From contig NC_086097.1 in assembly GCF_963921235.1 (NCBI RefSeq), positions 49,912,001 through 49,976,000 of the forward strand: 64,000 nt of DNA, read 5' to 3'. Position numbers and translations under genes: made by a program. A model generated the notes under the pieces. That model did not search any database. It was not told the DNA's origin and was given only the letters and a program-made list of their open reading frames with translations. The DNA comes from Mobula hypostoma. Lineage: Eukaryota. This document shows positions 3,660 through 38,776 of this stretch, one piece after another (the stretch's first letter is position 1; each line of letters opens with the position of its first letter).

Positions 3660-4640
3660 TCATAGAATCAGAATGATGCAGTGCAGAACATGACCATTCA
3701 ATCCATTAGATCTGCAACCACTCTTTTACAGAGTAATTGGTTCTTCCCATATATCCCGTCGATTTCCTTTCCTCAAAATATTTAATTTATCTTTTTTTTT
3801 AATACTGGTTAATTTTACAATGGAATATTCTTATCATTCTGTAGTCCTTTCCTGATTCTGAATACTGTTGAGGGAAAAAAGATAACGTTTCATGTTCTGT
3901 AGGGTCCTTTTGAGATTATAGTACCTTAAACTGATACCCTCTGCTTATTCATTCTTTAGTCATTGGAAAAAGTTTCATTTGTAATTCTTACATGAGATGT
4001 AGATGATACTGGCTTATGCTCCATTTCCAATTTATGTCAAGATGGTGATGAACCACCTTCCTTAACTTTAGACTTTGGGTTGAAAACACTGTCTGTGTTG
4101 ATGAGAAAAGATTTCCAAATATTATTTTGTTTACATCATTCATCCATTCTTCATAATATTGTATGCCTCCATCAGGTTGTGTCTTCAGCCTTTTCAACTC
4201 CAAGGAAAACAAATTCTGCCTATCTATCTCTCCTCAACTAAAATATCCCATTCCAGGCAGTATCCTGGTTAATCTGCACTATTCCCTCTCTGATGCAATC
4301 ACAATCTTCCTGTAGTGCGGTGATTAGATCTGCACAGAATATTTTCAAGTGTGACTTAGTCAAAGTTTAATAAAGGCCTGCATGCTTTTATATTCTTTGC
4401 CCTAGCTAATGAAGGCCAACATTCCACATGTTGGCTTCAGCACCATATCTATTTGCTGTCCTGTGAATTTTTATGCTCAGGTCCCTCTATTCTTTAATAC
4501 ACCCTAGGGTCCTAACATTCAGTTTTTACTTAGACTTTCCAGAAAATATCACCTCACACTTGCTGGGATTAAATTCTATCTGCTATTGTTCTGCCCATTT
4601 TACCAGCTGATTATTACTGTTCTTTATATAAGACTATCCT
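3660..4640 (-). mobile_element. Highly degenerate CR1 LINE 3' portion
   Basis: Reverse-complement remnants of the CR1 RT C-terminal region (FSLE.R.L, YCVQ.W.P-like) and a CR1-type tail near 3660; edges approximate. Confidence 0.6.
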
Positions 4641-7600
4641 CCTCACTTCCTTCATTGCCATCTAAAAGGCACTCAGTTTAAAGACAATTAAGGATGGATA
4701 TTAATGGTTGCCTTGCCAGGAATGTAAACAAATAAAACAAACATACTTACTTAACTGCTTTGTTATCTGTCTAGCCACCTTCAAAATTTGAGTACAATTA
4801 TGCTTGGGTTTTGTTGTTGCATACTTTTTGATAATGTACCACTTGCTTGGTATTGTCCCTCCTCATTGCAGACAGTAACCAGAGCAAAATATATCACATT
4901 ATGCTTTTCTGCTTTGAAAGTCTTCTAGTGTTCTGCATATTTCATTGTCTTGGGTCTCTTGGTACCTGTTCTGTAATTTCCATGCTATATATTATCCCAA
5001 AAATTTGAAACGGTATAATTTTTCTCTCCAATTCTAAGTTAATAATATATATTAAGAATGGCAGAGATCCCCAGGAGATCACTATAACTCCCTTCAGTCT
5101 GAAAAACAGCCAATTATAACAATATCCAGTACTAACTCTGAATCCATGTTGCTAGTTTTCACTTTTTCTCCCATGAGTTTTAACATGGTGCATTATGAAA
5201 TGCATTTTGATGACTTTATAGACAACATCAATGGTCATGTCCTTGTCATTAGAAATGATGGCATTTGAAAGCCATAGATATAGATGTTATAGCTATGTAA
5301 TAATAAAACGGACATCAATGTAACTGCACTAAAACAGTTACCAAACTATTGGTCCATTAAAACAGCACTAATTTCATACCACAAAATTAAATATGGAATA
5401 TGTAATTTAACACATATTAAGTTTAATTACTGGGCTAAGGACCGAAATATCTCTGTTATGTGCACTAAGCCAGGTGTAGTATGGTTAGCTGCTAGCATTT
5501 TACTTTACAACATTTTCTGTACCAATGGTAGTCACATTTCAATAAATCTCAAATTAGGTACAGCTACCATTTGTGAGCTAATGATTGCCATGATTAAGGG
5601 TATTCAGATTTCTGTCACTTGGAACATCTATGGCAAGCAGACAGAGTGGGCTTCAATACCTAGGTTAGATATTAGCCTTGAACTCCGCTCAGAATCGAAA
5701 GTCTTATAAAACAACTATGAAACTTGCTTGGAGCATGAGCTGACAATCATACAGGGTATACTAGGATCTTGATGAACAACAGAACTCAGTGTCTATCTCC
5801 AGATGCAATGAAATTCAAGGATTGGGAAATTTACAATGCATGAATTCAGTATCATTGGGTACATTAAAAAAACTAGCAAAGGCAAAAGGGGTGAAATTAA
5901 AAAGTAAAAGAAGCTGAAATAATTAGAAATAACTGTAAAACAATTTGCAACCTGAAGAAATGAGTATATTGGAACTTTCTGGATGTGAGTTTGAATGGGA
6001 GTTATATCTTTAAAAGCTACCTGCTCTGATAGTTACCAATCTTAAAATTTTGTTAAAGAATTAATACGGAATTGTGACAAGTTCAGAATGGCAAAAATGG
6101 CCAGCAGCTTGTGATTTAAAACCTATAGGACTTCCTCTCTTCATCACAAGCTGGTCAGTTTTCACTATAATAAGATTATTACTTTTCTGATAAAATAACT
6201 TATTATTTTGATTCTTTGAGGTCTCCATAATAATTGTATAGGCAGTGTCCATCTGCAGTGGCATATCCTTGGGTTGCAAATTGACTTGGATGGCTATTTC
6301 CTTTAAGCCATTTGAGACCTAAAATTCTGAAGTGTATAACATGACATAATTGTAGTCATGACCAGGTTATTGTTGCGTGTGGTTTTATTTTACATGGCAG
6401 AGAATTATGTAAGCAACATCGCCGAAAATGCGATCACTTTCCAATGAGGTAACTTTATTCAAGCTGCACCCAATGTTAATAACACTAATATCTTATGTTA
6501 CATTTCTAATTACTAATGTCAAAGATGTGATTAATGTTGTGGAATGTCATTAATTACATAAGAATTGTTTCCTATCTAATTCTGCATTTTTATATAGAAT
6601 TAGTTATTTGTACATTTGTTTTAATTCCCTCAAATTACAAGGAAGCTTATGTCATAGAATTTGCTTATGTATGCAGTATGCTTCAACTATTCTGATTTAA
6701 ATGTCTAAATTTTAATTTTCTTCAAGTCAGAAGTTGCATTCCCAAATCTTAAAATATTTTTTCAAACCTAAACTGGTTAGTTTTATTACAGCAATTAAAG
6801 AAACAAAATAAGCCTGAAATAATTTATTTTCAAACTGCTTATCCAAAAAATTAAAACGTCTTGTATTTTGAAGACGAACTATTTAATGCCACCTTTATCA
6901 AACTGAGAAGTGTTGTGAATATATAGTTCTGAAAGAACCAATATTGCTTTAACAATTATCTAGTGGAAGAATTAAGAAGGATGTAAAAAGAGAACTTAAA
7001 TTTGTGACTGGTGGATAAATCCACAAAACTATATTTTTTTTAAAAAAAGTTAACTACTTTCGGACAACTTGGAGAACTTGAGTTAGTTCCATGATCTTCC
7101 AAAAAAATTCTTTAGAGTTTCCAGATGTTTTTGTTGGGCAATTTGGCAGAATCAGATGAATTTTAAGTATTCAGTTTTCTTGTGCTGCAGTGTTGCTGTT
7201 TGTTGTGGAGTGATGTGAAGGAGTAAAGAGATGAGGAAGTAATCATTCCACTCTGACCAAGGAAGTGCTCTAGTTGTATGTGCCACTTGAAAATTATTGT
7301 ATAGCTGATGGTCTTCTGAGTTCCAGATGAAACCTTGGCATTATTCATTGACACATACACCCCAAAGGTTTGTTGATGAGAAAAATAAACATTGCATTTA
7401 CCAGTTGTGTTGGTCTTTGCATTGCATAAAGGGTTACTCTTCAGTAATCTGGCTTGGCAAAGCTTTTGGGATATATCATGCTGCACAGAGGTTCTCAAAT
7501 TATTTACATAATTTGGAACTAACTTACTATAATGTACTAGAGTTCCTCCAACTCACATCCCCCAGAGGATATATCAAGTTTGAAAAACATCTAAAGAAAC

Positions 7601-33810: not shown

Positions 33811-33966
33811 ATATATCCTTCCTTCCTATATATAAACACATATTGTAATGAAGTTTCCACACCAACTATCACCTTACTATATTTTGTACCTTCAAAACAT
33901 TAAACTAATTCAAAGGAAGTCCAAAATGTGATCAAACCTCAGGTTTACTTAAAGCGAGGCACGTGC

Positions 33967-35603
33967 AGCATCCCTGTTGCACCTGATGACCCTGTGATCT
34001 CTGTCTCAGAGGCCACTGTTAGGCTGTCTTTAAAGAGAGTGTACCCTTGCTAAGCAGAAGGTCCTGATGGAGTACCCGGTAAGGCTCTGAACACCTGCGC
34101 TAACCAACTAGCAGGAGTATTCAAGGACATTTTCAACCTCTCACTACTGTGGGCGGAAGTTCCCACTTGCTTCAAAAAGGTAACAATTATACCAGTGCCT
34201 AAGAAGAATAATGTGGGCTGCCTTAACGACTATCGCCCGGTAGCACTCACATCGACAGTGATGAAATGCCTTGAGAGGTTGGTCATGACTAGACTGAACT
34301 CCTGCCTCAGCAAGGACCTGGACCCATTGCAATTTGCCTATCGTTACAATAGGTCAATGGCAGACCAAATCTCAATGGCTCTTCACACGGCTTTAGACCA
34401 CCTGGACAACACAAACACCTACGTCAGGATGCTGTTCATCAACTATAGCTCAACATTTAATACCATCATTAACACAATCCTGATTGAGAAGTTGCAGAAC
34501 CTGGGCCTCTGTACCTCTCTCTGCAATTGGATTCTCGACTTCCTAACCAGAAGACCACAATCTGTGCGATTGGTGATAACATATCCTCTTCGCTGACTAT
34601 CAACAGTGGTGCGCCTCAGGGGTGTGTGCTTAGCTCACTGCTCTACTCTTTGTATACACACGACTGTATGGCTAGGCATAGCTGAAATGCCGTCTATAAA
34701 TTTGCTGATGATACAACCATTGTTGGTAGAATCTCAGGCGGTGACGAGAGGGCGTACAGGAGTGAGATGTGCCAACAAGTGGAATGGTGTCGCAGCAACA
34801 ACCTGGCACTCAACGTCAGTAAGACAAAAGAGCTGATTGTGGACTTCTGGAAGGGTAAGACGAAGGAACACGTACCAATCCTCATGGAGGGATCAGAAGT
34901 GGAGAGAGTGAGCAGCTTCAAGTTCCTGGGTGTCAAGATCTCTGAGGATCTAACCTCGTCCCAACATATCGATGTAGCTATAAAGAAGGCAAGACAGCGG
35001 CTATACTTTATTAGGAGTTTGAAACGATTTGGCATGTCAACAAATATACTCAAAAACTTTTATAGTTGTACCATGGAGAGCATTCTGACAGGCTGCATCA
35101 CTGTCTGGTATGGAGGGTCTACTGCACAGGACCGAAAGAAGCTGCAGAAGGTTGTAAATCTAGTCAGCTCCATCTTGGGAACTAGCCTGCAAAGTACCCA
35201 GGACATCTTCAGGGAGCGGTGTCTCAGAAAGGCAGTGCCCTTTATTAAGGGCCTCCAGCACCCAGGCATGCCCTTTTCTCGCTGTTACAATCAGGTAGGA
35301 GATACAGAAGGTTCTTCCCCTCTGCCAGCTAATTCCTGAATGGACATTGAATCTTTGGACACGACCTCACTTTTTAAAAAAATATACAGTATCTCTCTTT
35401 TTGCACATTTTTAAAAATCTATTCAATGCATGTAATTGTTTTACTTGTCTATTTATTATTATAATTATTGTTTTTATTTTATTTATCATTATTGTTATTA
35501 TTTTTCTCTGTTATTTTATGTATTACATTGAACTGCTGCTGCTAAGTTTATAAATTTCGCATCATATGCTGCTGATAATAAACTGGCATACGATTCTGAT
35601 TCT
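33967..35603 (+). mobile_element. Rex1/Babar LINE RT fragment nested in the LTR
   Basis: [58 protein letters not shown]; ends in a (GATTCT)n tail. Confidence 0.9.
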
Positions 35604-35726
35604 AATACATATCACATGGTAGCATGAGGACGCATGCAATTCACGTATTTAAACATATAACATGTAATTAATTATTCAAAGCAACAAGAATGTTTAATCA
35701 ACTATATACATACGAGATTACTCAAA

Positions 35727-35899
35727 CCCCCTCCTGTCGTCTCCTATCACTTCGGATCTCCCCCTCCCCCCTCACTTTCAAATCTCTTACTAGCTCTTCT
35801 TTCAGTTAGTCCTGACGAAGGGTCTCGACCCGAAACGTCGACTGTACCTCTTGCTAGAGATGCTGCCTGGCCTGCTGCGTTCACCAGCAACTTTGATGA
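35727..35899 (+). mobile_element. Penelope-type 3' end insert with 12 bp flanking duplication
   Basis: AGATTACTCAAA at 35715-35726 and 35900-35911; pyrimidine-rich segment, hammerhead-like core and family palindrome, collinear with the 3' end of the Penelope element at 61.7-61.9 kb. Confidence 0.8.
35808..35843 (+). ncRNA. Minimal type I hammerhead ribozyme motif (Penelope-associated)
   Basis: AGUC-CUGACGA-A-GGGUC(UC)GACCC-GAAA-C-GUC-GACU: stem I AGUC/GACU, intact core, stem II hairpin, palindromic ACGU in place of stem III. Confidence 0.7.
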
Positions 35900-36279
35900 A
35901 GATTACTCAAATATTACTGAAATACTAAATATACAACACTCCTCCCTGCTTAGCTATAAACTCCAATTCAATAGAGAATGCATTTCTCATAAAACACAGT
36001 ATTTTATATAGTACACCTAATATACAGTATACAGACATCCGCAGTATAGAGAATTTTAAATTGTCCCATTCAGGCCTGAAGCTTTAATCATTCTGAAGCC
36101 TTTCTTATTCTTGTGGGATAACATCTTTCCTGACCAGGGGAGTCACTCTGCCTGGCTGGTGAGAATTTTGGCTGTGAAATAATCTCAGGTTCTGGGGCCT
36201 CCTCCGTGGTGTTTGTAAGACTTGACTTAGAGATCACAGTAAATGATTCTGATAGTGGTAGCCACCTTTCTTCTCCTAA

Positions 36280-36802
36280 TTTGTGCATCTTGATCTTGGA
36301 AAAGTGCTTTTAGTTCACGGAAGTATTCTCTTAATCTCTCTGTTGCTCCTATTATCATCTGATCGCTCCTCCTGGTTTCCTCATCCACAGCGTTATGTGG
36401 CAAATCTTTTTTCATATCTCCGCTGACTCCTTTCTTTCTGGTTGTCCATTCATCCAGCTGGGCTTTGGACGTTGCATTTGCTTTTACAAACAGCTCTTTG
36501 TCTCCCACTTGAAGTTCATGCAATAACCTTAATGCATGTAGAGTAGATTCTGGTTCTCGCAAAAGCTAAATGCTTGCAACTTTCCTGAAGCTCCTTGAAC
36601 TCTCTTACAGCTTAAAACCAAGCCACATTTTGCAAGTAACTGTCTGATTAACATATCAAAAGCTTTCTCAGATGCATTGCTTACAAAAACTGTTGTAGTC
36701 AGACCACTGCTTTCATCACTTTCACACTTCCTCTGAGCAACATGGGTCCTTCCTTGGTCCCATATGCCTCCCGACCAGAGGCACAGAGGTTGTCACCAAC
36801 GC
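36280..36802 (-). pseudogene. RBM25: Processed RBM25 fragment (RRM region) inside the LTR element
   Basis: Translates as LVGRHMGPRKD / DESSGLTTTVFVSNASEKAFDMLIRQLLAKCGLVLSCKRVQGASGKLQAFSFCE / EPESTLHALRLLHELQVGDKELFVK...KAQLDEW...DEETRRSDQMI, matching RBM25 TTTVFVGNISEKASDMLIRQLLAKCGLVLSWKRVQGASGKLQAFGFCEYKEPESTLRALRLL; no introns; frameshifts. Confidence 0.92.
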
Positions 36803-36973
36803 CTGTTTGTCATCCTTTGGGCAACGGTTCATGGTGTTCGGCATGAGACTGTTGTGGCATCATCCAGTAACTTTCTTAATTTGCTTTCAGTTGGCTTTGT
36901 TGCAGAGAATGTGGCATGCAAACTGCGGATGGATCTCCAATCAAGTTGCAGATGTCTCAGCCAATCACGCACC

Positions 36974-37888
36974 CACTGTGAGCTCTCAGATTACCACAGT
37001 TTTCAGACTGCTGGATCACAAGACCAAGTCTGGTCTGAGAGTTGTAGTAGCTATCTCGGGGGGGAAATATTAGCCTTTTGTCAAGGCCGACAGCCATGTT
37101 CCAGTCACGAGCAGGCTGACAACAACCATGTCACTGAGGGTGGCTCTGTCTGTCCTTGCCGGACCAAGGGGATGGTGGTTCTTCCAGTCATATGGGGCTT
37201 AGAGTTGTTATTCAGCCTTTGCTTCTCCACAATGGATGCCAAACATCTGATGACCTGGTTTTGCCTCCATGTGTATCTTCTTTGAGTGAGGCTTATTTTG
37301 CAAGATGAGAGGATGTGCTTGAAGTTTGCTGTTCTTCCACAGAGTGGACAAGCTGGGTCTTCACCGAGCTTCAGTTTATTGGTTCAGATTTTTGGGCATT
37401 GGGAGAACATCATAAACAGCTCTTATAAGGAAGCTAATCTTTCTTCCTTCCTTTTCCCATAAGTCTTTCCAGCTGAATTTTCTTTTCTCAATGTTTTCTC
37501 ACCTTGTCCACTGTCCCCCTTTTGCCCGAGACACTACTCTAGCACTCCTCATCTGCTCCTCCTGTCGCCATACTTCCTCCCCCACCATAGCTTGCCTTTG
37601 CTTCTGTTTTGTCGCCTTTTGCCAAATGGGCCTATTTGAGCTTGTGCCAAGGCCTCATCTTCCACATTGCACTGGCCCACTATGCCTGCAAACCAGAGTT
37701 CTGCCTTTTCCTGATTTACTGACTCTGCTGGAAGTCACTTTCTACCTGGTTAAGGTCCTGGGTGCAGTATCCTGGACAACTCTGTCACAAGATTCCAAGA
37801 GAGTCATCTTAAACCTCACCTTGGCACATTTGAACTCTTCAGTCAGCCCTGTGACAGGCCACTCCAGAGTTCCTTTGCCACACAGGTA
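36974..37888 (-). mobile_element. Internal fragment of a HERO-type (restriction-like endonuclease) non-LTR retrotransposon
   Basis: Translates as LCGKGTLEWPVTGLTEEFKCAKVR, RKFSWKDL, ISFLIRAVYDVLP, EDPACPLC...KHILSSC...YTWRQNQV (zinc knuckle), TTLRPDLVL*S...ELTV (RLE PD..E motif); stops and frameshifts. Confidence 0.82.
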
Positions 37889-38776
37889 GATCCAATCATC
37901 TGTTGTGTAATCAAATGTGACAATTTTTCTGACTTAGCCAGCCATTTCTACTTTTTATGATTATTATCACATGTTACTCACTTTTTATGAACCTGCAAAT
38001 TCTTCTATTTTCTGACTTTTTAAAAACTTGATTGTGTCTTCCCTTCCAAAGAACATGTGCTGCTCTCCTTTTGTAAAACTTGACTGTCTCTGCATGTGCT
38101 GTGCTGCAATTTTTTTCACTCACCGTTCCTCAACACATTTTTTCAGTTCGGACGTTTTTGCTACACTTCAACAGGTCAATAGCCGTCTCGGGTTTGCTTC
38201 ATCCTTTCTATTTCTCCCTCCTCAAAACAACCAGGCTTCGCAATTCTTCTCATCTGCCTCTAAACTTGCCACAATCTCCTCCACCCCTGTGTGGACCTTT
38301 ACAGCCATTTATGGGGGGCCTACTGATTAAAACTTTCAGCCGCCTGCCAGGCTTATTAAATTGCTGAACAATGTTCTTTTAAATTGCAGCATTAAATTCA
38401 AAATTTAATGGCTCCTATTTGAGTGCTGTCCGGACTCAGCTGTGACTCGCCCTTATAATCAACCAGTAATACGCAAGGATATTCTACACTCATTTCCATC
38501 CTAATAAAGCTGAATTTTCTGAGTTCTCCTGAACTTAATCAATATAAGTTTCTGTGTCAATATTCAGAATGAAAATTGACTGTAGGCTTGCCATGCACTC
38601 AGCTTGAACTTTCAAGGAAGTCTAATGCACAAAACCACTCCACTCACTGCCTTCAAAATGGTGTTACTTTTGCTATTTAATGCTCTTGAATTTATTGAAG
38701 TTTGTATTTATTAATCCATGCACTAAACAGGAACAAAATTACATTCAGTTGTCCTCTTTCTCTGGCCCTCTGACTG

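Follow-up and report, generated by a model that had tools for sequence, protein, structure and literature searches.

The locus analyzed here raises the question of how an intron-less fragment of RBM25, a splicing-factor gene, came to lie inside a Gypsy-type retroelement, in the place where the polymerase genes of the element belong. The window, meaning the whole 64,000-nucleotide stretch that was analyzed (G000:C1:49912001-49976000), had been predicted from its letters alone to hold such a fragment within a non-autonomous LTR family. The analysis makes it very probable that positions ~38229-33875 (minus strand) are an old, damaged copy of a non-autonomous Ty3/Gypsy family, the pol genes of which were replaced by a spliced RBM25 cDNA via template switching. 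The structure of the element, its parent gene and autonomous relative, the exon junctions, the microhomologies, and the junctions that the copies have in common were shown by the analysis, and this reading builds on them.

The RBM25 insert and its flanks in the window

When the window was compared by blastn with the parental gene region, the consecutive exons A to E were found without introns, about 3.4, 1.7, 2.8, and 4.8 kb of parental intron sequence being gone, and 461 of 527 aligned bases over all five exons matched the parental RBM25 gene. The predicted intron-less RBM25 RRM region on the minus strand was thereby borne out, as was its derivation from several spliced exons of the parent and not from one, since the window copy has four exon-exon junctions and longer copies have as many as eight. 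The cDNA could be subdivided into the last 3 nt of exon 2, exon A (36849-36803), exon B (36802-36631), exon C (36630-36573), exon D (36572-36419), and exon E with a remnant of exon H (36418-36266). The original prediction had placed the insert at 36280-36802; this core was right, and the insert begins approximately 50 to 60 bases further upstream. Because the 48-nt exon A and the end of exon 2 had been missed, the cDNA-derived stretch is now given as ~36859-36266 on the minus strand. Three frameshifts were found in the insert: a 1-nt insertion near 36745 and a 7- to 8-nt deletion at 36572-36557, which together account for the two small frameshifts predicted, and a third, the 1-nt deletion near 36845 in exon A.

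Protein comparisons pointed to the same gene. When the second half of the stretch was searched against proteins, the top match was a shark "RNA-binding protein 25-like isoform X1" (58%, E 4e-27), followed by full-length teleost RBM25 proteins. The insert contains the RRM and the linker that follows it; this linker is RBM25 specific, and the order is colinear with the exons of the resident gene. The Pfam RRM_1 score was 14.6 bits in the RRM half of the window copy, which is below the cut-off, and 29.1 bits in another family copy (L009). A Protein Data Bank search with the RBM25 part returned generic RRMs only. At the ends of the insert, neither poly(A) nor a target-site duplication was present, in the window or in the junction sequences of 30 copies, as had been predicted.

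The sequences flanking the insert were those of a Gypsy element. On the upstream side, window positions 36975-36847 matched residues 372-414, the protease end, of P0012, a 1,312-aa K02A2.6-like Gypsy polyprotein with precomputed RT, RNase H, integrase zinc-binding, and integrase core domains (tblastn, 49%, E 6e-7); a close relative of this protein, P0010, has a zinc-knuckle domain too. On the downstream side, a 73-aa frame (36309-36088) matched the last residues, 1256-1305, of P0012 in a single-comparison BLASTP (35%, E 0.003), which was run separately on the window frame and is not part of the tblastn survey of the copies. Both predicted flanks, the protease end and the integrase tail with the polypurine tract and LTR beyond it, were thus confirmed. 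The parts of the element are listed in Table 1.

Table 1. Parts of the RBM25-carrying element and of its insert, in window coordinates
Feature	Position	Strand	Basis
5' remnant: last bases of 5' LTR, PBS region, leader, gag start	37892..38229	minus	blastn to full copies
Nested repeat, ~915 bp, unrelated to the RBM25 family	36974..37891	minus	first-look search; ends of homology
Gypsy protease C-terminal end and linker to the switch point, peptide WVRDWLRHLQLDWRSI...LLDDA	36860..36976	minus	tblastn of P0012
Putative upstream switch point, 7-nt microhomology TGCCACA	36853..36859	minus	comparison of L051, family copies, and parental exon 2/exon A
RBM25 cDNA	36266..36852	minus	blastn to parental exons, protein matches, Pfam
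Exon A (48 nt, cassette)	36849-36802	minus	blastn, 86%
Exon B	36799-36632	minus	blastn, 88%, E 1e-55
Exon C	36630-36573	minus	blastn, 93%
Exon D	36556-36418	minus	blastn, 86%
Exon E	36389-36267	minus	blastn, 81%
pol 3' end, integrase tail, ...YPTRIRK, then stop codon	36088..36265	minus	BLASTP to P0012
Polypurine tract (PPT) AAGCAGGGAGGAG	35939..35951	minus	adjoins 3' LTR in the window and in c009, c025, and c015
3' LTR, three pieces (35938-35900, 35726-35606, 33959-33875)	33875..35938	minus	blastn of full-copy LTRs
SINE-like insertion in 3' LTR, 173 bp	35899-35727		12-bp target-site duplication (35911-35900 / 35726-35715)
LINE fragment splitting 3' LTR, 1.6 kb	35605-33960

At the 5' end, about 340 bases of leader and gag start are retained (38229-37892). 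In blastn comparisons with full copies, window 38194-37889 matched c025 (3975-4271) at 68% and window 38143-37890 matched c015 at 73%, and a local alignment extending to 38229 scored 78, compared with a shuffle maximum of 54. The remaining 5' LTR was not detectable, and no match to the 3' LTR was found upstream in the window. The nested repeat stands in the place of ~1.07 kb of missing gag-protease sequence, the equivalent of which in the full copy c009 is 4295-5363. With this repeat as the query, there were 132 first-look candidates, and the 40 scored were 79-87% identical and nearly all of full length; in two other copies, the homology to the window ended at 37891 and 36974, with unrelated flanks. 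The uniform length suggests a non-autonomous LINE derivative. The repeat contains a LINE C-terminal-like frame (CPLCG...HIL..C), the protein-atlas neighbors of which include a "Reverse transcriptase" zf-RVT cluster (0.96).

The 3' LTR of the window begins with TGTTGT. One of the two insertions that interrupt it, the SINE-like repeat, had by far the highest depth in all four runs (depth summed over repeat contigs, which is not a copy number), and several copies of it also lie within the RBM25 gene region. The LINE piece that splits the LTR lies on the plus strand and corresponds to part of an RT (frames 34054-34596 and 34686-35339), and just past the LTR end there is a second LINE piece, on the minus strand, with an endonuclease/RT frame of 532 aa (33825-32227).

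The family, its parent gene, and its autonomous relative

A 601-base query against the 3.48-Gb assembly gave 2,813 first-look candidates, a figure that is not a curated census. All 40 candidates that were scored matched; they were spread over many contigs, and the 39 others were 79-83% identical to the window. On these counts, the copies look like hundreds or thousands, and the predicted non-autonomous LTR family that spread an RBM25 fragment is supported. A total of 29 other copies were fetched with 1.5-kb flanks, five of them with 4 kb more upstream. The predicted sharing of both Gypsy junctions could be counted in these copies: the upstream junction was crossed in 28 of the 29 and the downstream junction in 22, and the remaining 7 copies, which break at the downstream junction, have extra RBM25 exons there.

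A full family copy is ~2.9 kb long and consists of LTR, PBS, gag, protease, RBM25, pol tail, PPT, and LTR. Three of the five extended copies were complete, with LTR pairs of ~190-270 bp that have TG...CA ends and are 78.5, 83.1, and 83.9% identical. In all three, TGGTGATGAGG directly follows the 5' LTR and resembles a primer-binding site (candidate PBS). Target-site duplications of full copies are weak, with agreement at four of five bases in one and at three of five in another, the copies being old. Residues 1-414 of P0012, comprising gag, zinc knuckles, and protease, were colinear on the full copies at 44-61% (tblastn), with stops and frameshifts present; the protease motif DTGSA is found in family copies, and the family protease frame scored 20.2 bits against Pfam RVP, just below the cut-off of 20.7. 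No tblastn match to P0012 past residue ~437 was found in family copies. The insert, in sense orientation, thus lies where RT, RNase H, and integrase belong, as had been predicted, with nothing matched in between. Since these three enzymes are missing from every copy examined, the family is non-autonomous; the proteins closest to it have them in the order RT, RNase H, integrase. Judged by its protein matches, the carrier is a Ty3/Gypsy (Metaviridae) LTR element of the K02A2.6-like type. At one locus (L008, G000:C96:22421553-22425128), two RBM25-carrying copies lie head to tail, ~700 bp apart, which could be a tandem or a nested arrangement.

The parental RBM25 gene was located by the PWI-domain end of teleost RBM25, and the surrounding 120 kb was mapped by tblastn and blastn. 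It lies on the minus strand at G000:C1:99791418-99840627, on the same contig as the window and ~50 Mb away from it, and canonical splice sites were found around exons 2, A, E, G, and H. Exon A is included in an annotated shark isoform. It is an in-frame cassette exon of 48 nt (G000:C1:99832586-99832633, in L038; VSMLYTMNRCPTEGKQ) between exon 2 and the exon starting VLVPTSV, and this is also where the teleost isoform P0006 has an insertion. A solitary LTR-like piece (G000:C1:99876648-99876785, in L043), which may be a solo LTR, lies on the opposite strand, approximately 44 kb from exon A on its upstream side.

The extent of the capture was read from the longer copies. RBM25 sequence continued beyond exon E in 7 of the 29 other copies: in L024, exons A to G are followed by the beginning of exon H, and L013 and L016 contain the exon G/H junction followed directly by the Gypsy tail. 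A query with parental exon F gave 359 first-look candidates, and 39 of the 40 scored were non-parental (91-96%). The PWI-domain exons gave three matches, all in the parental gene. The insert stops 19-28 nt inside exon H, and the 3' end of the mRNA is not included. The longer copies show that the insert, when first captured, was ~1.1 kb long with eight exon junctions and reached from the last bases of exon 2 to this point in exon H. The window copy is a shortened form. It belongs to the majority short form, in which everything from the purine-rich end of exon E up to where exon H begins, also purine rich, has been lost. It is of the same family, a membership read from the parts that remain, and it is a secondarily shortened capture without a detectable 5' LTR and most of gag-protease.

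Probing with the protease-end-to-RT part of P0012 gave 29,016 first-look candidates, of which 150 were scored, and the resident Gypsy group is very abundant. The K02A2.6-like elements form at least two DNA-distinct families, only one of which is the partner of the RBM25 family. The autonomous relative was recognized in two pieces, L051 for the start of RT and L060 for the integrase end and tail. In the protease region, L051 and the family are 82-88% identical at the DNA level (106 of 120 bases in the window protease stretch; 82-85% over 299-483 bases in five other copies), and L051 leaves the family sequence exactly at the upstream junction, where it continues into RT (...DDATAVFKDG...). Its RT-start DNA gave 2,329 first-look candidates, one of them 2,495 bp upstream of an integrase-end match, and the 400 bases past that match were taken as L060. 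The identity of L060 to the family tail was 77-85% over 130-170 bases in 8 of the 9 copies compared (131 of 170 in the window); the ninth could be compared over only 30 bases. Two other loci considered as the tail of the autonomous partner were rejected: L054 had no homology, and L055 is a member of another Gypsy family.

Both junctions lie inside exons. At the upstream junction, parental exon 2 ends in ...CCTGCCACAACT, the family copies read ...GATGATGCCACAACT/GTCTCC, and the autonomous L051 reads ...GATGATGCCACAGCAGTGTTC. Most family copies have ACAACT before exon A, as at the end of exon 2, compared with ACAGCA in L051. Because the family copies show the end of exon 2 before exon A, the insert contains a spliced exon 2/exon A junction, and the upstream crossover lies within the shared 7-nt TGCCACA. 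This heptamer has the same codon phase in both parents, and the fusion is therefore in frame: the frame was the same on both sides of the junction in 7 of the 9 copies whose protease match extends that far, although these seven count as a single observation because of their shared ancestry. The predicted fusion product is a Gag-PR-RBM25 protein with the RRM and the Arg/Glu-rich region. At the downstream junction, L060 reads ...GTTAGAGAAGAAATGTGGTCAGAGC and exon H reads ...AAAAGGAGAAGAAAAGGGAT; the family copies switch within a shared 9-nt GAGAAGAAA in exon H, which sits in a purine-rich tract where chance matches are easier. Each of the two microhomologies was derived from a single partner copy and from the gene in their present-day state, and not from the sequences as they were at capture.

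Origin of the chimera

The sequence of events that we consider most consistent with these data would begin with the joint packaging of Gypsy RNA and an RBM25 mRNA of the isoform that has the 48-nt exon A. While the minus strand was being made, the reverse transcriptase would have jumped from the pol 3' region of the Gypsy RNA to the mRNA at the 9-nt match in exon H, copied back through exons G to A, and, having reached the TGCCACA at the end of exon 2, gone back to its Gypsy template. The product would have retained both LTRs, the PBS, the PPT, gag, and protease; with these cis parts kept, it could have been mobilized in trans by the autonomous family and then multiplied. Later derivatives would have lost exons F and G by deletion between purine-rich tracts, giving the short form found in the window. 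The switches would have taken place inside a virus-like particle, and the amplification would have depended on the enzymes of the partner. Capture by template switching, as originally proposed, is supported by the microhomology at both junctions, which fits a double switch and does not fit splicing or LINE retroposition.

Microhomologies of 7 and 9 nt also mark microhomology-mediated repair, and the sequence is silent on where the joining took place. The chimera could accordingly have been built at the DNA or cDNA level, by end joining between an RBM25 cDNA and the Gypsy element, the latter either as cDNA or already integrated, and then amplified as a non-autonomous element. We hold this to be improbable: two precise joins that keep the sense orientation, the cis parts, and the protease frame are the direct outcome of a double switch, a route documented for animal LTR elements (Tan et al. 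2016, PMC5131818), and no filler bases were present at either junction in the copies read. A further route would be read-through transduction, in which a Gypsy element inserted upstream of exon A and a cryptic donor in pol was spliced to exon A. Local alignment lends this some appeal, because 15 of 30 copies have RBM25 homology beginning precisely with the first base of exon A, none has it further upstream, and the autonomous L051 has GT at that point. The ACAACT of most copies is nevertheless the end of exon 2 and not the ACAGCA of L051, and the crossover lies within TGCCACA. The surroundings of the gene likewise speak against such an insertion: within 120 kb, the one short window-matching LTR-like piece is that 44 kb upstream on the opposite strand, and the only match to P0012 is an RT stretch (99892918-99894082), also on the opposite strand. 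Read-through transduction is therefore judged very unlikely, and capture through a splice donor was ruled out, the bases before exon A being the end of exon 2 within the microhomology.

LINE fragments are plentiful around the window copy, and a LINE-made RBM25 processed pseudogene might have landed in one Gypsy copy that was then spread by segmental duplication. This is extremely improbable, as the insert is surrounded by neither poly(A) nor a target-site duplication, the mRNA is cut at both ends inside exons, and the region from RT to integrase has been removed and not just interrupted. The copies, moreover, are bounded by LTRs and dispersed over many contigs, with unrelated flanks past the LTR ends. 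Double template switching stays the preferred account of the chimera.

Known systems, decay, and age

The mechanism itself is known, and it is the scale of amplification that is unusual. Tan et al. (2016, Genome Res 26:1663; PMC5131818) describe LTR-mediated retroposition in fly, mosquito, zebrafish, chicken, and mammals, in which a partial mRNA replaces part of the internal ORF by double template switching, with a median microsimilarity of 6 bp; the products have no poly(A) or target-site duplication and can act as non-autonomous elements. The RBM25 family resembles the chimeras described there in its intron-less partial mRNA in sense orientation, in its retention of both LTRs, and in the microsimilarity at both ends (7 and 9 nt). 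It differs from them in being old (LTR pairs 16-21% diverged), in its amplification to apparent hundreds or thousands of copies, in its sub-forms, and in its in-frame gag-protease fusion. The maize element Bs1, as cited in PMC13317346 and PMC5131818 (Jin & Bennetzen 1994; Elrouby & Bureau 2001, 2010), transduced host-gene fragments and has a hybrid reading frame. Both Bs1 and the RBM25 family are LTR retroelements with host-gene fragments in place of their own coding capacity; Bs1 is a plant element with fragments of three host genes, whereas here one animal gene contributed eight exons to very many copies. The copy number of Bs1 is low. Acutely transforming retroviruses (gag-onc) and the mouse ETn elements mobilized by MusD are also defective LTR elements that carry foreign sequence in the place of pol and use a helper of the same lineage. 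The gag-fused cargo and the helper dependence are alike. The RBM25 family differs from these in that the cargo is a splicing-factor RRM with no hint of an action on the host, and in that its junctions lie at microhomologies within exons and not at splice sites or genomic read-through points.

In literature searches, none of the 10 papers listed out of 29 on RBM25 and retrotransposons dealt with a capture, and nothing relevant was listed on non-autonomous LTR elements of sharks; Repbase or Dfam may already list the family. What stands out in it are the amplification, the sub-forms, and the fully resolved junctions. It provides a vertebrate case of host-gene capture by an LTR retrotransposon that is resolved throughout, in its parent gene, exon content, both switch points, and helper family, and the chimera has multiplied, unlike the few-copy cases in the sources cited above. 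The family is also a record of RBM25 splicing, since the mRNA that was captured already included exon A. Many "RBM25-like" pseudogenes are to be expected in the annotation of the source genome and related genomes. In addition, the copies are naturally occurring material for the study of template-switch junctions and of how sequence between purine tracts is deleted in retroelement replication.

A functional role for the Gag-protease-RBM25 fusion while the family was active is a speculative and rather unlikely extension. The RRM and the Arg/Glu-rich region might have aided the binding or routing of the element's own RNA, so that the chimera outcompeted its helper, and the Gypsy lineage might, in cartilaginous fishes, repeatedly shuffle and amplify host genes. 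A functional fusion would explain why the chimera is comparable in number to the autonomous family (2,813 versus 2,329 first-look candidates). If true, the fusion would be a retrotransposon analogue of gag-onc fusions, and nothing shown here requires it. No protein spanning the protease-RBM25 junction was among the best 150 listed in a scan of 1.84 billion representative proteins; the matches in those 150 were to the RBM25 part only, from query residue 81 onward. A junction-centered word search of proteins likewise gave no match among six candidates.

The copies have decayed. The longest sense frame in the 30 copies was 242 aa and none was intact, and stop codons were found inside the aligned RBM25 codons of 21 of the 30. 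With all 30 copies broken, the family has most likely died out, and the copy in the window most likely has no function. Comparisons among copies gave a dN/dS of 0.77 (dS 0.20; 435 pairs), which indicates nearly neutral decay, and comparisons of copies with the parent gave 0.34 (dS 0.26, dN 0.088), as expected if only the parent was constrained; pairwise dN/dS has little power for selection on a master lineage. The divergence within LTR pairs corresponds to a Jukes-Cantor distance of 0.18-0.25; with an assumed neutral rate close to 10^-9 per site and year, the implied age has an order of magnitude of 10^8 years.

No RNA run was listed among those that contain sequence of the window copy. The run X19, which may be RNA, contained short contigs only, with ~91% likeness over repeat parts, and was uninformative on expression. 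The runs of six further species labels contained 21-44% of the sampled 31-mers of the window copy. A 164-nt contig of another species (organism B) spanned the copy-specific breakpoint at 36976 with three mismatches, and the insertion in the window and its damage are therefore older than the split from that species.
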